From: Escherichia phage 241
Sequence record: OR924452
Strand: one strand, 5' to 3'
DNA length: 64,000 bases
The translations under genes and the position numbers were made by a program. The notes beneath the pieces were generated by a model. That model was not told where the DNA came from. It was given only the letters and a program-made list of their open reading frames with translations, and made no database searches. Below, one piece after another: positions 8,453-38,090 of this stretch. How positions within the stretch are numbered: the stretch's first letter is position 1; every line of letters begins with the position of its first letter.

Positions 8453-8833
8453 TCAATTTGTCCGTTTCAACCATATGGTGTCTGTTATCGGCTCTGGGTT
8501 GTTGACCACATAAAACGTTATGGTTACACCCAGAGAATGATAATCTTCAGACAATGACACATCAACTGATTGTATCTCCGCTCTCGGTTCAAATAAAGCA
8601 ATCGCGTCTTCAACTTTGTTTTTAACATCAACCTGAATTGTGGGATTCGTATTTTCCCCCAGCATGGTATACAGCCCAGCCCCGATACTTGGGTATGTCG
8701 GCCAATCCCCAACTGTTGTCATCACGATATTTCGTACGGATTGCAACACGGCATAGACACCTGTTTTCTTTGTGACATCTTTGGTGACCGGATGCATGCC
8801 AAACTTCAGGTCAATGTCCTTGTACTCTTTCAT
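8453..8833 (-). CDS. 25: baseplate wedge protein, gp25/GPW family
   Basis: About 127 aa; pattern DIDL...IVMTTVGDWPTYPSIGAGLYTMLGEN parallels T4 gp25 (..IITTRKGSRPFDPEFGCDLSDQLFEN..); AAAGGGG RBS before ATG at 8833. Confidence 0.7.
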   Translation of the reverse strand: MKEYKDIDLKFGMHPVTKDVTKKTGVYAVLQSVRNIVMTTVGDWPTYPSIGAGLYTMLGENTNPTIQVDVKNKVEDAIALFEPRAEIQSVDVSLSEDYHSLGVTITFYVVNNPEPITDTIWLKRTN

Positions 8834-8897
8834 GTTAAACCCCTTTGGATATTGCCTCTCCGGCACGAGAGGGCATTATCTACCCTCGCCAGTGTAA

Positions 8898-10523
8898 TCA
8901 TGCGTCTTTACCACCAAAGTTGCCGCCATTATCCTCCAGTTCCGGTTTTATATCAATTGGACCAGGACCAGAAGTAGATACCGGAGTTGCCCCAGCGCGT
9001 GATGCAGCACGACCAGCACCTTCAGCATATTTGATGTTGCCTTCAATAGTCTGCGCCACCGACAACTTATCACAAACTATTTCACTAGCCAGTATTTTAG
9101 GCACTTTTAAAGTATTGGAAACTTCCAACATCTCACAGATGATACGCATCACGTTTTGCGCCTGAATTTCGGCCAGCTGTGAAAATTTCATCAACGCCGT
9201 GCCAGCAACCACATTGGAGTAGTTCGATGAATGTAGATGATAGACCTCACCTGTCTTGCGCTGAACTTCAGTCCCACCAATGGTCAGGTTGTGATCACGA
9301 CCAACATAGTAACGTTTGTCAAACATCGTCAGATCATAATGATCTTTGACTGATTTATTGACCACGTCCCCGTCAGGAAGCATCTGCTTATAAGACCCCG
9401 AGGAGTGCATCCAATGGAGACGTTCCCCGCCTGGTGTGTCATCAACCTCCATGATATGCCCTGACCGAGATGCCATGACATTGTTGTAAGGATAACGAGA
9501 CCCGCCAGCAGAAGGAACCGACACCTCTCCTGTGTTATCAATATCTTGAACACGCCCAGAAGGAGGCGGAGTTTCCTGAACTTTTGGTGTACGATCAGGG
9601 ATTGGCTCAGACCATTTACCATTTTGTTGTGTAGGAGCCGCCGATGCTGTCGTAGCAGGACCAGGCCAACGATAACCCAACACAGATGAGCGGCTGAAGC
9701 GACTCACCTTCACAGAATCTGATTGGTTGCCTCCAATACACCAAACATAATTGGCATCGAATTTCTGTACAAACGCAACGTGTCCAAATGTTGGGTTGTT
9801 GCCACGACGGAATACAACAACTGCGCCGTAACGGGGTTCTGACAAAGGGGAACCCCATTGCAAATATGAACGAGCCAAAGCCGAGCGCGTTGAAGTGTAT
9901 CCTGCTTGGATCAACACCCATCCCACAAATGAAGCGCACCAGCTGACTTCATCTTCCGAAGCGCCCAAAGATGTTGTCTTGTGATATTCCAAAATCCTTG
10001 GGTTATTATTGAATTTGCCAGAATATTCTTTGACACCTAATTCACCACGAGCCACTGTCATCCATTTCTCGGGATCATAACCGTCCACAGGCGGTTGAGG
10101 TTCTGGTTGTGGGTCGTCTTCAATCTTGACAGGAACATTTTCAACGGCGTTATATTTCTGTCTTTCTATAGATTGAACAACCTGGCCCAGCGCCAACGGG
10201 TTTGTGTCTGAACCATCCGTTGGTGTCGCCGCTGGCCAAACCCAGGCGATACGAATATTTTGGTATGCTTCATCCAAAGCAAATCCCATAACATCCGACC
10301 CGACTGTAATACCCGTTGGAGACCAGCCTAAACCTGCCGAGGAGGCGTTGGATGCTGGCATGAGCATTTTACCCCAAGGCAATAATTCGGTAGGTAAGAG
10401 AGTGGTATCTTCCGTGTGTACGCCATAGATGCGCACAGCGACGCGCCCGTTCTGGTCGGGATCATTCACGTCTTCAACGCGCCCGTAAAACCAACGCAAG
10501 TTGTCTAACATATTGAAACCCAT
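8898..10523 (-). CDS. 5: baseplate hub / tail-associated cell-wall hydrolase, gp5-like, with a CHAP/NlpC-P60-type domain in place of the T4 lysozyme domain
   Basis: N-terminus RWFYGRVEDVNDPDQNGRVAVRIYGVHTED resembles the gp5 N-terminal OB domain; central region has a Cys...His pattern (SWCASFVGW ... GHVAFV) typical of CHAP amidase/peptidase domains. Confidence 0.6.
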   Translation of the reverse strand: MGFNMLDNLRWFYGRVEDVNDPDQNGRVAVRIYGVHTEDTTLLPTELLPWGKMLMPASNASSAGLGWSPTGITVGSDVMGFALDEAYQNIRIAWVWPAATPTDGSDTNPLALGQVVQSIERQKYNAVENVPVKIEDDPQPEPQPPVDGYDPEKWMTVARGELGVKEYSGKFNNNPRILEYHKTTSLGASEDEVSWCASFVGWVLIQAGYTSTRSALARSYLQWGSPLSEPRYGAVVVFRRGNNPTFGHVAFVQKFDANYVWCIGGNQSDSVKVSRFSRSSVLGYRWPGPATTASAAPTQQNGKWSEPIPDRTPKVQETPPPSGRVQDIDNTGEVSVPSAGGSRYPYNNVMASRSGHIMEVDDTPGGERLHWMHSSGSYKQMLPDGDVVNKSVKDHYDLTMFDKRYYVGRDHNLTIGGTEVQRKTGEVYHLHSSNYSNVVAGTALMKFSQLAEIQAQNVMRIICEMLEVSNTLKVPKILASEIVCDKLSVAQTIEGNIKYAEGAGRAASRAGATPVSTSGPGPIDIKPELEDNGGNFGGKDA

Positions 10524-11030
10524 TAGTCAATTAGAATCATGGGTTATTTATGGCGGGGATTTGAAATCTGTCGAATAGTAATATTATAGGAAGCTCTGCT
10601 TCCGTTCAACTTTATTCTTTTCGTTTCTACTCGCTGAAGCTCGTAACACCGCCTTGACAGGCAGTCCCATTCCAATGCCATGGAGGCATAAAGGCGAGGA
10701 AAATACTGTACACCTCAGAACATGCGTAGAAAAGGATTATTTTTGCTTCAAAACAAATTCAAACCCCAATTTACACAACACTTACTTCAGCAACAACGGT
10801 GTTATAGCAATTTAAGGTTAAACGTTCCTGTCTTAACCTATAAAACAGGTAAGCAAAGAAAACCCCACATTACGTGGGGTTGGAAGATTTCTTGGACAAA
10901 CGTATCTTTAGTGTCTCTGTTAGCAAATCAAGATGCCAAGGCATCGACTCGCTTATTTCAAATATGCTATAGCCATGTGCCTTTAATTCGTCACACATCA
11001 CAAAGTAGGAGAGTAAATCAATTTCAAAAA

Positions 11031-11834
11031 TTAAATGAAAATTTCAGTGACACTGTTAAATTTGACTTCATGTTCTTTCCCACACGAAGGACATTTAATT
11101 TTCGTCGCGTAACGGATACGAGGAATCTTTTTAAAGAAATCGTCGGATATATCTTGAACAATCTCAGATTCAATATTTTCCCCCACCCATTTAACAAATT
11201 CATCTTTGACACGTTGACGTTCTTTAGCAACATCAGGTGCTATGCCAGGCTCTGCCGGATTCTCTACTTTCCAAACCTGACCATCATCGTCATACAAACA
11301 ATCAATAAATGTCGCGATCATTTGCTCCACAGATGATGCTTCGTTGAGCACTGAGGCGTCCGAGAAGGACGGTTGACGCATCTTGATGTGATAGCCACCA
11401 GGGAGGTCAAATGTTTCCCTGAAGCCTTCTGGGGACACGCATTTCACTTGGTTGAGGGGGATCGGTAAAACAAGTTCTTGACCACATTCTTTAAGGCCAG
11501 AAACTGGTTCTTCACCTTCATTTGTGTCGGATGGAACTTTGTTGTTACATTTGTATCGTATCTTCATGACCTCGCCGATAGATATACAGCGCATCTTTAA
11601 AAATACTTCTTCAGTAACACCGATTGGCAGTTTACTAAAGGGAACCCCAGCGTCAACACAACTATCAAACAGTTGCTCCAGCGTCGCTACACGTTCACTC
11701 ATAGGAGTGTTCGGATCAGCAACCTGAAGTAACATGGTCTGTTGCCCTGCTGTGAAAGCGCGGTATTTAATCACCGTCGGCCAGAAATCACTTTTGTGTG
11801 TTCTCTCAGTTTTGGGCAATGATGGTAAATTCAT
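11031..11834 (-). CDS. late structural protein, probably baseplate-associated; C-terminal CPSCGKEH zinc-ribbon-like motif
   Basis: GGAGA RBS before ATG at 11834; T4-type late promoter TATAAATA about 29 nt upstream; adjacent to gp5. Confidence 0.5.
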   Translation of the reverse strand: MNLPSLPKTERTHKSDFWPTVIKYRAFTAGQQTMLLQVADPNTPMSERVATLEQLFDSCVDAGVPFSKLPIGVTEEVFLKMRCISIGEVMKIRYKCNNKVPSDTNEGEEPVSGLKECGQELVLPIPLNQVKCVSPEGFRETFDLPGGYHIKMRQPSFSDASVLNEASSVEQMIATFIDCLYDDDGQVWKVENPAEPGIAPDVAKERQRVKDEFVKWVGENIESEIVQDISDDFFKKIPRIRYATKIKCPSCGKEHEVKFNSVTEIFI

Positions 11835-11862
11835 AATGTATCTCCACGGTATATTGTAACCA

Positions 11863-11870
11863 TATTTATA
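11863..11870 (-). promoter_or_regulatory. T4-type late promoter (TATAAATA)
   Basis: Exact TATAAATA on the minus strand about 29 nt upstream of the ATG at 11834. Confidence 0.5.
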
Positions 11871-11883
11871 ATGAGGACCGAAA

Positions 11884-12408
11884 ATGCACGCGTTCTGTTT
11901 CAGTAAAGTTGGAGAACAACTTACCATTAATTATCCGGATACAAATACGGATTTCTTTGTATTGCTAACGGATTTCGCAAATAAATTGGGGATCAAGAAT
12001 ATCGCCATGACTGTGGACGATATGAAATTTGGTCGTCTGGGTGTAAAAGATTTATTGAATTACGGATTCAACGTAATCATTGTCGATCAGACATACAGCC
12101 CAATTGACGAGGAAGATGTTATTCCAGTTTGGGTTCAACGAGACATAAACACTCTGGATAAGCATTATCCCGATTGTGTCATCATTGGCGAATTAATACC
12201 ATATTTTCATAAACGTCGTCGGCTTGAATCAATTAAAAGTTATTTTCAAGATAGCGATGACGGATATAAAATGGATGTCCTTACGAGCGGTTGGGTTGTG
12301 AAGAATACCACAGGCAATGCCGACCGAATTACTTCCCGTCTTTATGAATATGTTAAAGAACGGGATTATGAACTGGAGAACAATAATGCCAAACGTAGAA
12401 CGCGCTGA
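11884..12408 (+). CDS. hypothetical protein (174 aa)
   Basis: ORF diverging from the late gene; GAGGA RBS. Confidence 0.45.
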   Translation: MHAFCFSKVGEQLTINYPDTNTDFFVLLTDFANKLGIKNIAMTVDDMKFGRLGVKDLLNYGFNVIIVDQTYSPIDEEDVIPVWVQRDINTLDKHYPDCVIIGELIPYFHKRRRLESIKSYFQDSDDGYKMDVLTSGWVVKNTTGNADRITSRLYEYVKERDYELENNNAKRRTR

Positions 12409-33215: not shown

Positions 33216-35156
33216 TTACCAATCCCAAAGAATACGACCTGCGTCAGTACGGTTGGACGGCTCCAGTTGTGAACTGTTGAAGTTGTTTGTCGTACTGACT
33301 TTCTTCGAGTTATCAACATTTTGTTGTACAGGCATTACCACACTGGCTGGTGGGTTGGCGTAGGAAGATTTAACTTCTTCAATGTTGTTAGCCGCTCTCC
33401 CCTGAACCGGATATGCCCCACCCAGAGTACCTCCCCCGATCCCAGCATATGCATCTTTCAATTGAGAAGTGCGATCTGTTACGTTCACAGCATCCGAAGA
33501 AACCCCAGAAGGCATTGGAGTCAGCGTGCTGATATCTGCATTAGGTTGTGCTGGCGATTGACTGTTCGGTGGTACAGAGGCATTCTCAGGAGCCTTATCG
33601 TCTTGGCTTATCAGCATAGACTGTCTTGCTTCCGCCATCTTATTCCTGGCCGCTTCACCACCCAACGCATCGGGGATAATGCTGACAAACTTATCCACGA
33701 TATCAAACATCGCATTGGTGATAGCATTCAACATGTTGAAGAAAGGTTTCTTCACGTTTTCTGCAAATCCTTTCTTCATGTCTTCAACGACTTTGTTTGC
33801 AGCCGCCATGCCGTCATCTATCAGGCCAGTTATTCCACCCGTTACCCAATCAACCAATTTTATCAATTGGCCTTGCAAGTTATCTGCAAGTTTACCAGGT
33901 ATTTCGGTCAGTGATGTACTCTTCCCAATACCCGCAAACAAATCGTTGGTGACCCAATCAACAATCGAGTTCAACCAACGCACGGGCGCTTCGGTCATTT
34001 TCAGCACTTGTTCACGGAACGCCTTTCCAAACCCAGCATTGTTCCATCCGAATATTTCAGCAACCCAATCAGCGAGATCCCCGAAACTACCGACCAGCTC
34101 TGTTATCCCTGCCTGAACCCGATCAACGATCGATACTTGCGCTTTACCAAGGATTTCTTTAGCATTAAAGAACCCTTTACCGAATTCAAATACAGATGTT
34201 ATTAATGCCAGAGGTCCAACTCGAAGCATCTTGGTTGCTGCTTTCAGGGGCGCAAGCAACCCGCCGATCCCAGCACCAAACCCCATGAATAATTTAATGA
34301 AGCCACCAACAAGTTTTAATGGGGACATCAGGAGTTTTAACGCGCCCAGTCCAAGGAGTGCCCCCAGCGCCGCGCCTAACCCAGAAGATTGACCATCTTG
34401 TTTAGGCTCAGACGGAGGGATAGAACCAGCCTCTGGATTGTTCTTGTTTTCTTTACCTTCTTCACCACGACGGAATTTCTCTTCTTCTCTATATTTTTGA
34501 TCACTTTCATAGATACGTGTCAGAGTATCATTAAGATCTTCGTTCATGTATCCCAATTTGTCATCAATGCTGTCGAGGCGGGTAACAGTTTCGTTACTGG
34601 CATCTTTATTGAAATCCAGCGTGTCCTTATGCGTTTGAAGCATTATGTCAGTCAGGTTTACGATCTCCCCTCCGACCAACGCCAGCTTATCCTTTAATCC
34701 ATCAAGGCGTTCAAGACTATCTTCGTTGGCCGCGCCCAATTGATCTGATATCATGTCAAGATATTCAACTGACATGTCGTCAACCGGACCATTCGCTGCT
34801 TCACCAAATTTTTCGATCTTGGTGGCGATACGCATCAGTTCTTCATTGCCGTCCTTTGTTAGACTGACGGTGTCTTTCATCCAAGTGCTGTAATCCCTTG
34901 TGAAAATGGGACTGACACGGACGAACCCACCAACAATATCATTCACCGATGGGAATTTAATTGGCGGTACTTTCTGCTCCTGATTAGACGCCTGTCGTGT
35001 CTTCAGAGATTGCAGTTGTTTGTTGACATCGGCGAGCTGTTTATTCGTCTCGGATTGGGCGCGCAATTGCTTGCGCTCCATCATTTCTTTTTTGATTTTA
35101 TCCAAAACCTTGACGATGTCTTGCTGCCCTGGTGTCGGTTGATTGTTATCTGCCAT
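33216..35156 (-). CDS. tail/baseplate protein with coiled-coil N-terminus and Gly-rich hydrophobic core (tape-measure or hub-like)
   Basis: 646 aa; LGAALGALLGLGALKLL...GFGAGIGGLLAPL segment; in a structural block. Confidence 0.4.
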   Translation of the reverse strand: MADNNQPTPGQQDIVKVLDKIKKEMMERKQLRAQSETNKQLADVNKQLQSLKTRQASNQEQKVPPIKFPSVNDIVGGFVRVSPIFTRDYSTWMKDTVSLTKDGNEELMRIATKIEKFGEAANGPVDDMSVEYLDMISDQLGAANEDSLERLDGLKDKLALVGGEIVNLTDIMLQTHKDTLDFNKDASNETVTRLDSIDDKLGYMNEDLNDTLTRIYESDQKYREEEKFRRGEEGKENKNNPEAGSIPPSEPKQDGQSSGLGAALGALLGLGALKLLMSPLKLVGGFIKLFMGFGAGIGGLLAPLKAATKMLRVGPLALITSVFEFGKGFFNAKEILGKAQVSIVDRVQAGITELVGSFGDLADWVAEIFGWNNAGFGKAFREQVLKMTEAPVRWLNSIVDWVTNDLFAGIGKSTSLTEIPGKLADNLQGQLIKLVDWVTGGITGLIDDGMAAANKVVEDMKKGFAENVKKPFFNMLNAITNAMFDIVDKFVSIIPDALGGEAARNKMAEARQSMLISQDDKAPENASVPPNSQSPAQPNADISTLTPMPSGVSSDAVNVTDRTSQLKDAYAGIGGGTLGGAYPVQGRAANNIEEVKSSYANPPASVVMPVQQNVDNSKKVSTTNNFNSSQLEPSNRTDAGRILWDW

Positions 35157-35166
35157 TTGTCACCTC

Positions 35167-36555
35167 TCAGACCTTCTGGGCTTGTCCTTTCTCTATTGGC
35201 GTCGGGGTTGGTGTAGAAGCCACAGTTTGACCAGTCTGAGGTGGTAAGACCTTCTGGATCATACTATCTTTGGCAATCTCAGCGACGCATTGATAATCAT
35301 TTGTCAGGCGTGAAATCTTGTGGCGTATCTTTGTGACGATATAATGGCCTGTTGATAACTTACTTAACTCGGCAATGTTTTCATTAGATTTCGGGCGGTT
35401 CGACAAATCTTCAATATAATAAACCTGCCCAACATTTAGACGGTTATCCCCCACGACCAGCAAACGCATAACCGTTGATGCGAGGCTGAATTCTATAACG
35501 CGTCGTGCGTAATCTATTTGTTCGGCACCATCCGGTTGCGCTTCAATGTACCTAACGTTCTCGCGGTCGAATTGATCAGAGAACAAAGGGAACGGATCAA
35601 GGTGAGCAGTGCTGTCAAACCATTCTGAATAAATGCGTTGGGTCGCTGTCGTGGATTTTGTACTAAAGTCATACACGCGCTCGTTCACTGCCAAGATATC
35701 CCGATAATTCGCCATGTACTGATCACGCGCCAGTTTCTTTTCAGCCTTGATGATCGTCCGCATAAAACGTTCGGAGTTGAAGTTGTTGTCTTGCATCAAC
35801 GGGGCATCTTGAGGATCACGGAAGAATTTCTTTTCCGCGCTTGCCTCTTGTTTCTCTTCAGCAGTCATGGACTGATTGCCCTGGTTGAACAATGTCGTCA
35901 TGCTCTTGAAGTGATAGCCTGTGAAGTCTTCATAGAAAACAAATGGCATAAACAATTCGTCGTATGCGCGGCTGGCCATATAATCGATGGAACGGAGTAC
36001 AGGCCAAAGAGGAGTTGCGAATCGTTCTTGCACACCATACGACGGATCTATGTCTTCAAATTTGGTTCGAGAATTTAACTGCTCAAAAATCTTGGCCGCC
36101 ATTTCTGAATAAGAACCGCTCAGACCGATAGACTTACGCAGCATGCTGTCACGGTACGCATCTGTTGTCACCAAGTGCAGCCAAAATGCTTTTTTAGATG
36201 ATGAATTGGATTCATCCGCAACTCTGCCCACCCGACTCACGCGCAATGAGAGAGTAGTGTAATCAGAAGCCGCTGGTGATTTGAATGACACCACTACTTC
36301 TTCACCGCCAAGTATCGGCATTGTGTCCAATATATCCCAACCTTCTTTTATCAAGATATTGGCTGTCAGTGAAGGAGAAGCATTACCTTCCAAACCAAGA
36401 TCTTGGTAGACGTTGAATTCTTGAAATAAAGAAGACAGGTCATATGGTCTTGGCGTACCACCTTCTGGAGTATGTGGTAGGATCGCCATATACTTCAAAT
36501 CAAATGTGGTGGACGGTGTTAAAATACCGTCTTGAGATTCTTTATTTTCGATCAT
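35167..36555 (-). CDS. baseplate/tail structural protein (462 aa)
   Basis: Large ORF co-directional with neighbouring structural genes. Confidence 0.35.
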   Translation of the reverse strand: MIENKESQDGILTPSTTFDLKYMAILPHTPEGGTPRPYDLSSLFQEFNVYQDLGLEGNASPSLTANILIKEGWDILDTMPILGGEEVVVSFKSPAASDYTTLSLRVSRVGRVADESNSSSKKAFWLHLVTTDAYRDSMLRKSIGLSGSYSEMAAKIFEQLNSRTKFEDIDPSYGVQERFATPLWPVLRSIDYMASRAYDELFMPFVFYEDFTGYHFKSMTTLFNQGNQSMTAEEKQEASAEKKFFRDPQDAPLMQDNNFNSERFMRTIIKAEKKLARDQYMANYRDILAVNERVYDFSTKSTTATQRIYSEWFDSTAHLDPFPLFSDQFDRENVRYIEAQPDGAEQIDYARRVIEFSLASTVMRLLVVGDNRLNVGQVYYIEDLSNRPKSNENIAELSKLSTGHYIVTKIRHKISRLTNDYQCVAEIAKDSMIQKVLPPQTGQTVASTPTPTPIEKGQAQKV

Positions 36556-37109
36556 TTGGTCAGCTCCTGTTCCAGCTGATTAACAAAGGAAGAAACATAA
36601 TCTGGATCGAGCACTTGGATGTTACGTTTGGCTTCGTTTTTGTTTATTGCATCATCGTGATATGTAATGCCAGTCAGCCCGTAATTCGCGATGATTGTCG
36701 CGTCGTCCATAGCGCCAAGGCCATATGCCAAACGGATAGCGCGGGGATCTGTTTCATTCCCAAATTCGTCAACGTAGTATTTTACGTCCCACATCCCATC
36801 GAGACCATAACGAGCAGTTAGCTCTTCAATGATTCTGCGTTCTGGTTTTGGCCAGTCTTCTGTGATATCCATGATACCATTGATAAGACATGGTATCCAG
36901 AACAACTCGAAGGAACCATAGACCCGTTCCGCAAAAGACCTTGGGGTTTCCCCATCGAAAACAGTATAAGGCAGGAGAAGCCCTTCTATGTCCCGAATTT
37001 TCTTAACAACCATAACCCGTCGTGTCAAGTTTTGCAACAGGACTTGGTCATTTTCTTTGACACCAATTAGTTGATGCCATACGAGTGGAAATTTCTCAAA
37101 ATATTTCAT
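36552..37109 (-). CDS. baseplate/tail structural protein (185 aa)
   Basis: ORF with ATGA overlap to the downstream gene. Confidence 0.35.
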   Translation of the reverse strand: MKYFEKFPLVWHQLIGVKENDQVLLQNLTRRVMVVKKIRDIEGLLLPYTVFDGETPRSFAERVYGSFELFWIPCLINGIMDITEDWPKPERRIIEELTARYGLDGMWDVKYYVDEFGNETDPRAIRLAYGLGAMDDATIIANYGLTGITYHDDAINKNEAKRNIQVLDPDYVSSFVNQLEQELTK

Positions 37110-37121
37110 GGCATCTTCCCC

Positions 37122-38090
37122 TTAGAAGCTGTCGCCTTCGGTATCAAAGCGGCCTTTGTGCAACGGTTCCAGTTCAATAAATGTCATGTCAATCTGGGTT
37201 GACACGATGCTATCATCTTTGTGGACAGCATATGAAGAATCCGGCGTCTCGTTGACAAACATGTTTGACAAAACACAAGTCGATATTCGATGTAACCATT
37301 TATTGCGTTCCCCCTGCACCATGAACGTGATGTCAAATGTGGAAGGGTGTAGGTAGAATGCACTGGAATTCTTGTTGTATTTGTATTCGGGGTACATATG
37401 CATCTTGAACAGACGAATGATTTCCCTCACCATTTTCGCCTCTTTTTGAGATCGAGGAGTGAATTTAAAGGTGAATGGAATTTCGCGATTGCGCACCCCT
37501 TGGAATATCATTTCTACATATGGGTTTGTCATTGTGCCCGTGAACAACTCTAATGTATCGTGAGCATTAATTGTTGGTAAGAATGGAATTGCTTCCGAAG
37601 CAGATTGAATCGCCTTTGTGGCAGCAAATCGCCCCATTTCTTTTCCCACGTTTAATGCATCGCCAAGTTTGAATTGGCTCATATCTTGGGCAGCGCGGGA
37701 TAAGAATTGGGCACCCATACCAGCTAATCCTAGCTCAGAGCCGTTCCAACCAACGCCATAGTTGGTTGTAATAGATTCAGGCATGCATAACACTATGGAC
37801 TCGTTAGAGCGGACATGACGCGCCCAAGCATATTTGCTGATAGAACCTGATTTAGAACCATAAACCACAGGAGTTTTTCCCAGTGGGTTTTGAATAGGGT
37901 TCTCAACGGTTTGAGTCGTTGTGTCGCCGTATGACGATCCTGATATGCGGTTAATATTGAATAAAACATAATGACCGAGGGTTTTACCCCCCGTTATATC
38001 CAACGGATAGACCAATTGCTTCTGAGACTTGGCCAAGCCTTTTGTGTTCAGAACTTTGATCTTATCGATGGTCGACTTGAAATTCGCCAT
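37122..38090 (-). CDS. baseplate tail-tube junction protein (gp48/gp54-like)
   Basis: 322 aa; AAGGG RBS; PYVEMIFQGV...PFTFKFTPRS reminiscent of T4 tube-initiator proteins (from memory, not aligned). Confidence 0.4.
   Translation of the reverse strand: MANFKSTIDKIKVLNTKGLAKSQKQLVYPLDITGGKTLGHYVLFNINRISGSSYGDTTTQTVENPIQNPLGKTPVVYGSKSGSISKYAWARHVRSNESIVLCMPESITTNYGVGWNGSELGLAGMGAQFLSRAAQDMSQFKLGDALNVGKEMGRFAATKAIQSASEAIPFLPTINAHDTLELFTGTMTNPYVEMIFQGVRNREIPFTFKFTPRSQKEAKMVREIIRLFKMHMYPEYKYNKNSSAFYLHPSTFDITFMVQGERNKWLHRISTCVLSNMFVNETPDSSYAVHKDDSIVSTQIDMTFIELEPLHKGRFDTEGDSF

Follow-up and report, generated by a model that had tools for sequence, protein, structure and literature searches.

Spike gene and genomic neighborhood

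The stretch of DNA analyzed here (the window) comprises 64,000 nucleotides of Escherichia phage 241, which belongs to the Vi01-like genus Kuttervirus in the family Ackermannviridae. An open reading frame of 541 amino acids, running from an ATG to a stop codon, occupies positions 8898..10523 on the minus strand. This gene is the orthologue of Vi01_076 of Salmonella phage Vi01 (99.3% nucleotide identity) and encodes a gp5-type baseplate central spike, or tail-associated peptidoglycan hydrolase. The protein is 100% identical to that of Salmonella phage vB_Hercules_SET, where the gene shows 99.9% nucleotide identity, and P0001, which represents its 90%-identity cluster, carries the name of Vi01. 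A match to the DNA of the gene is present in 254 phage records, and a match to 80% or more of the protein in 278.

As listed, the open reading frame begins with MGFNMLDN... from the ATG at 10523, four codons upstream of the usual start of its homologues. The start lies at the fifth codon (Met5, MLDN...; ATG at 10511) in 10 of the 12 other aligned spike homologues, and the 537-aa gp5 of phage CBA120 and the homologue P0002 likewise begin there. No obvious Shine-Dalgarno sequence was found upstream of either ATG (10523 or 10511). In view of this common start, the ATG at 10511 may be the true start of the spike gene, which would give a protein of 537 aa.

The spike gene lies between two baseplate genes on the same strand, in the same order as in Vi01. 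Its upstream neighbor (11031..11927, minus) encodes a gp26-like baseplate hub subunit (Pfam T4_baseplate, 1.9e-51; phrog_150) and its downstream neighbor (8453..8866, minus) a gp25-like baseplate wedge protein or sheath initiator (Pfam GPW_gp25, 37 bits; phrog_261, 3.4e-35). The gp26-like reading frame is listed with 298 aa, and Vi01_075 is annotated with 267 aa (804 nt). Because the Pfam match starts only at residue 45, the gp26-like gene probably begins downstream of the ATG listed for it.

A gap of 507 bp (10524-11030), unannotated in Vi01, separates the gp26-like gene from the spike gene. It contains a 43-aa open reading frame at 10870-11001 that matches phrog_9633 (E 4e-29) and is followed by a strong, terminator-like hairpin at 10861-10881 with a 9-bp stem and a T-rich tail. 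The ~340 bp upstream of the spike gene hold no open reading frame or Rfam match, and an Rfam scan of the whole 507-bp gap returned nothing at threshold. The T4-type late promoter sequence TATAAATA occurs three times in the window against about two expected occurrences. It is thus not enriched, and we therefore did not count CATAAATA upstream of the spike gene as evidence of a late promoter.

Further baseplate genes were found at a distance from the spike gene. A gp53-like gene (36552-37109) and a gp48-like gene (37122-38090) lie beside a gene for a 462-aa "tail protein" (35167-36555, minus; phrog_350), whose position makes it a likely candidate for the gp27-equivalent hub. Searches of Pfam and of PDB sequences found no match for this candidate hub. 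Next to it, a 646-aa open reading frame (33216-35156) matches phrog_3799, a family of unknown function, and may be the tape measure. Near the start of the window, beside a PhoH-like gene, a 264-aa protein with PG_binding_1 and N-acetylmuramidase domains (PF11860/DUF3380) is encoded at 1795-2589 on the plus strand. This muramidase is the probable endolysin of the phage and is unrelated to the spike enzyme.

The literature places the spike protein in the virion. A "tail associated lysozyme" is among the virion proteins identified by mass spectrometry in six Vi01-like phages (PMC10892097), including Sajous1, whose spike gene is 99.4% identical to the one described here; the same virion observation for Vi01 is cited by Kutter et al. 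(PMC3184105).

Domain layout of the spike

In a phmmer search of the PDB, T4 gp5 matched the spike with an E-value of about 4e-29. The match is confined to aa 4-87 and aa 338-436 of the spike, and the T4 lysozyme that lies between the corresponding parts of gp5 has no counterpart in this alignment. The N-terminal region (aa 1 to ~110; 10194..10523, minus) is a gp5 OB-fold domain. Pfam Gp5_OB matches aa 39-98 with 40.2 bits, above the cutoff of 25, and phmmer aligns aa 7-87 with residues 6-91 of the T4 gp5 chains 1k28/1pdl/5iv5 (i-Evalue 1.4e-11). An earlier note on this DNA, made without database searches, had described the N-terminus as gp5 OB-like, and both searches bear this out. In T4 gp5, the OB domain docks the spike on the gp27 hub trimer.

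The OB domain is followed by a Pro/Gln/Glu-rich linker (DDPQPEPQPPVDG; aa 111-153; 10065..10193, minus), recognized by its composition and by low pLDDT in both of the structural models described below. Next comes the predicted catalytic domain (aa 154-286; 9666..10064, minus), which belongs to the TIGR02594 family of the CHAP / NlpC-P60 superfamily. A second linker, rich in Pro and Thr (aa 287-337; 9513..9665, minus), was delimited by composition and by a profile alignment in which it faces approximately residues 353-383 of T4 gp5. The linker of T4 gp5 holds the maturation cleavage site, and judging from this alignment the second linker would correspond to it in position.

Beyond the second linker, aa 338-436 (9216..9512, minus) form the start of a gp5C-like beta-helix, the membrane-puncturing needle. 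In the phmmer search this region, with aa 341-436 as the matched stretch, aligns with T4 gp5 residues 384-477 (i-Evalue 7.4e-15), and it also matches PDB entry 9f4a, described as "baseplate central spike protein". The needle is recognizable as gp5C in its first half only, and in the remaining C-terminal region (aa 437-541; 8901..9215, minus) no resemblance to T4 gp5 could be detected. This region closes with a Gly/Ala/Pro-rich tail bearing an L-x-D-N-G-G-N-F motif at aa 529-536. Across 13 aligned spike homologues, F536 of this motif never varies, and D531, G533, G534 and N535 are conserved to 90% or more. Homologues that are longer (605-617 aa), among them the proteins of Serratia phage 3M and Erwinia phage phiEa2809, carry a further extension of ~70-80 residues ending in G-x-x-W-E. 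The C-terminal region could be the tip of the spike or act as an adaptor to a tip protein.

An AlphaFold model of the full-length spike monomer, built from a 13-sequence alignment, reached a mean pLDDT of 47.6 and only about 30 for aa 437-541, so that neither the needle nor the C-terminal tail could be read from it. We attribute this low confidence to the spike being expected to be an obligate trimer.

A papain-like domain in place of the T4 lysozyme

The central domain matches the NCBIfam family TIGR02594 over profile positions 2-132 of 132 (aa 154-286), scoring 133 bits where the cutoff is 70.55. Pfam places a CHAP domain (PF05257) at aa 191-266, its score of 40.7 bits exceeding the cutoff of 26. 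None of the Pfam lysozyme families, including the GH24 family PF00959, matches the spike. When the central domain alone was compared with the PDB by sequence, nothing significant was found (best E 0.13-0.17), and a profile of the domain gave weak matches to NlpC/P60 proteins (E 0.006-0.4). To place the domain, a comparison of folds was needed.

Residues 140-305 were modelled with AlphaFold from a 26-sequence alignment. The model has a mean pLDDT of 88.2, with values above 90 in the core, and shows a papain-like alpha+beta fold. Foldseek searches of the PDB and of BFVD were concordant. The viral matches were CHAP, TIGR02594, PlyB-like and NlpC/P60 proteins, and none of the PDB fold-search matches listed is described as a lysozyme. 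We rejected a lysozyme-like fold for the central domain on the grounds of the missing PF00959 match and the absence of lysozymes among the PDB fold matches listed; the PDB sequence alignments to T4 gp5 leave out its lysozyme as well. These results support the conclusion that an NlpC/P60-CHAP-type cysteine peptidase replaces the lysozyme of T4 gp5 in the same position. The earlier note had anticipated such a domain from the letters alone, and it is now backed by CHAP and TIGR02594 matches above their cutoffs together with the papain-like model.

The replacement of the lysozyme by a CHAP/NlpC-P60 domain is already known, having been published in 2011 for the CBA120 orthologue, which is about 99% identical. 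Kutter et al. (2011, Virol J 8:430, PMC3184105, section "Baseplate Lysozyme") reported that the 537-aa CBA120 gp5 has no recognizable lysozyme and resembles T4 gp5 at aa 3-109 and 334-437. They assigned a putative CHAP domain of the TIGR02594 family and NLPC_P60 superfamily to aa 150-282. Database labels for the protein are nevertheless mostly "tail lysozyme", which is misleading about its chemistry; some records use "hydrolase", "cell wall-associated hydrolase" or "TIGR02594 family protein".

Predicted catalytic residues and their conservation

The Cys...His arrangement on which the earlier note based its proposal of a CHAP/NlpC-P60-type domain is present, with the Cys in SWCASFVGW (aa 194-202) and the His in GHVAFV (aa 247-252). 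Cys196 (SWCASF; codon at 9936..9938, minus) is the predicted catalytic nucleophile and His248 (GHVAFV; codon at 9780..9782, minus) the predicted catalytic base. A GGNQ motif follows at aa 264-267 (9723..9734, minus).

Conservation of these residues was assessed in two alignments. The first covers the central domain in 26 homologues whose identity to the query domain lies between 28% and 88%, and draws on spikes of phages as well as on bacterial TIGR02594 proteins and proteins with several enzyme domains. Here His248 and GGNQ never vary (26/26), and Cys196 is kept in all homologues except one (25/26), P0041, which has Ala. The second alignment comprises 13 full-length spike homologues from several Ackermannviridae genera. 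Cys196, His248, Asn266, Gln267 and the GGNQ motif as a whole are invariant across it, including in the outlier P0026, which is only 35% identical. The third polar residue of the catalytic triad may be Asn266 or Gln267, because these residues come 18-19 positions after His248 and lie on the next strand of the model.

The exceptional P0041 is a 336-aa TIGR02594-type protein in which the catalytic Cys is replaced by Ala (W-A-S-A-F) and which carries a TIR domain (PF13676). It may represent a catalytically dead, peptidoglycan-binding version of the domain in a defence or signalling context.

Proposed role of the spike enzyme

Taken as a whole, we consider it highly probable that this protein is a Kuttervirus spike built on a gp5 scaffold, with a TIGR02594-type peptidase that opens murein by peptide or amide cleavage. 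Its architecture, the fold class of the central domain, the conservation of the catalytic residues and the baseplate gene context are direct observations of this study. That it is catalytically active and trimeric, which bond it cuts and how it is delivered, we infer from the analogy with T4 gp5.

By this analogy, the N-terminal OB domain would seat the spike trimer on the hub, and the C-terminal beta-helix would serve as the needle. The peptidase would be inserted between the two proline-rich linkers, with Cys196 and His248 as the predicted catalytic pair and GGNQ (Asn266/Gln267) as the likely third element. Upon contraction of the sheath, the needle would be driven through the outer membrane and three copies of the peptidase carried into the periplasm. 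There they would open the murein sacculus locally, giving the tail tube access to the inner membrane. Cleavage would be of peptide or amide bonds and not of the glycan backbone, which agrees with the earlier note's inference that a different peptidoglycan bond is cut than in T4.

The bond cut would most probably be the gamma-D-Glu-mDAP linkage of the stem peptide. Within the literature library covered, a search for the enzymology of this spike domain or the bond that it cleaves found no published assay. Some CHAP domains are N-acetylmuramoyl-L-alanine amidases, and MepS and Tae3 are DD-endopeptidase / LD-carboxypeptidase enzymes. It is thus possible, at a clearly lower probability, that the same spike carries an N-acetylmuramoyl-L-alanine amidase, or a DD-endopeptidase / LD-carboxypeptidase, instead of a gamma-D-Glu-mDAP endopeptidase.

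We regard as improbable a more novel reading of the spike, in which the TIGR02594 module has a bond specificity or an activation step undocumented for virion-associated lysins of Gram-negative myoviruses and the conserved aa 437-541 form a self-contained tip replacing a separate PAAR/gp5.4-type tip protein. If true, either the bond or activation step or the self-contained tip would be a modest enzymological or structural novelty within a known protein.

The need for the lysozyme activity of T4 gp5 varies with conditions, and the distant homologue P0041 has lost its Cys. By these parallels the central domain of the spike might be mainly structural or dispensable for infection, kept as a spacer or as an accessory of use only with certain hosts or in certain growth states. 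Nothing in the query sequence itself favors this reading, and the invariance of Cys196, His248 and GGNQ in all 13 full-length spike homologues indicates selection for catalysis, so that we consider it very unlikely. That the open reading frame is instead a mis-annotated endolysin or free secreted hydrolase, as the annotation of lone TIGR02594 domains as putative endolysins in some small Pseudomonas phages might suggest, can practically be dismissed, given OB and beta-helix flanks homologous to T4 gp5, baseplate genes as neighbors, the reported presence of the protein in virion proteomics and the separate muramidase endolysin at 1795-2589, on which ground we rejected the spike gene as the phage endolysin.

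Comparison with known systems

The closest described proteins, CBA120 gp5 and Vi01_076, are essentially the same protein with the same gp26 and gp25 neighbors; apart from a few substitutions and the listed start, there is no material difference. More widely, OB and TIGR02594 domains occur together outside the Ackermannviridae as well, for example in Rhizobium phage P9VFCI and Acinetobacter phage nACB2, and an ICP1 protein annotated as a putative hub has the TIGR02594 domain alone. In our homologue search, the fusion partners of the OB domain included M15 peptidases, SLT transglycosylases, GH24 lysozymes and CHAP domains. The variety of modules on gp5-OB proteins therefore indicates that swapping of the enzyme module on the spike is common. 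Among metagenomic gp5-OB proteins (P0029, P0046, P0052, P0053 and P0051), Peptidase_M15_4 (PF13539), Peptidase_M15_3 (PF08291), Phage_lysozyme (PF00959) and other domains were found instead of CHAP. Two proteins of about 630-646 aa, P0024 and P0025, combine NlpC/P60, Phage_lysozyme and LysM domains with CHAP/TIGR02594, the last at 45-51% identity to the query over the stretch aligned; such multi-enzyme cell wall hydrolases may be the bacterial source of the module.

These comparisons present the gp5 spike as a modular carrier and suggest that a Gram-negative myovirus can breach murein by a peptidase and not a glycosidase. Kuttervirus phages serve as biocontrol agents against Salmonella and E. 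coli O157, and enzybiotics are sought among virion-associated lysins, which lends the spike enzyme some practical interest.

With T4 gp5 (1k28, 5iv5) the spike shares the OB domain, an enzyme between two linkers, the C-terminal beta-helix and a baseplate gene neighborhood. It differs in the enzyme, an NlpC/P60-CHAP cysteine peptidase where T4 has a GH24 lysozyme, and in its last ~105 residues, a Gly/Pro-rich tail with a conserved DNGGNF that is unlike the T4 needle. The spike lysozyme of T4 is related to T4's own lysis lysozyme (Kutter et al., PMC3184105), whereas the endolysin of phage 241 is a PF11860 muramidase unrelated to its spike enzyme.

The NlpC/P60 endopeptidases Acd24020 of C. difficile, LytE and CwlO of B. 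subtilis and MepS of E. coli are only 15-24% identical to the query domain. The latter falls into TIGR02594/CHAP and not into Pfam NLPC_P60, its third catalytic residue apparently lies in GGNQ, and it is carried by a phage spike, while theirs is part of a secreted autolysin. The diffocin Hub-Hydrolase CD1368 (8v3w) and the hub of Staphylococcus phage 812 (9euf/9eum) also carry an NlpC/P60-CHAP domain. They belong to Gram-positive contractile systems, act on Gram-positive targets and have the domain as a fusion to a gp27-like hub. The carrier in phage 241 is instead a gp5 OB/beta-helix protein, and similarity to these hubs is undetectable in sequence beyond the shared fold. Finally, the T6SS amidase effectors (Tae1/Tse1, Tae3 and Tae4) and the T6SS effectors with TIGR02594 domains are separate cargo with immunity partners and act in killing of target cells, whereas the domain described here is fused into the spike itself and would serve phage entry.
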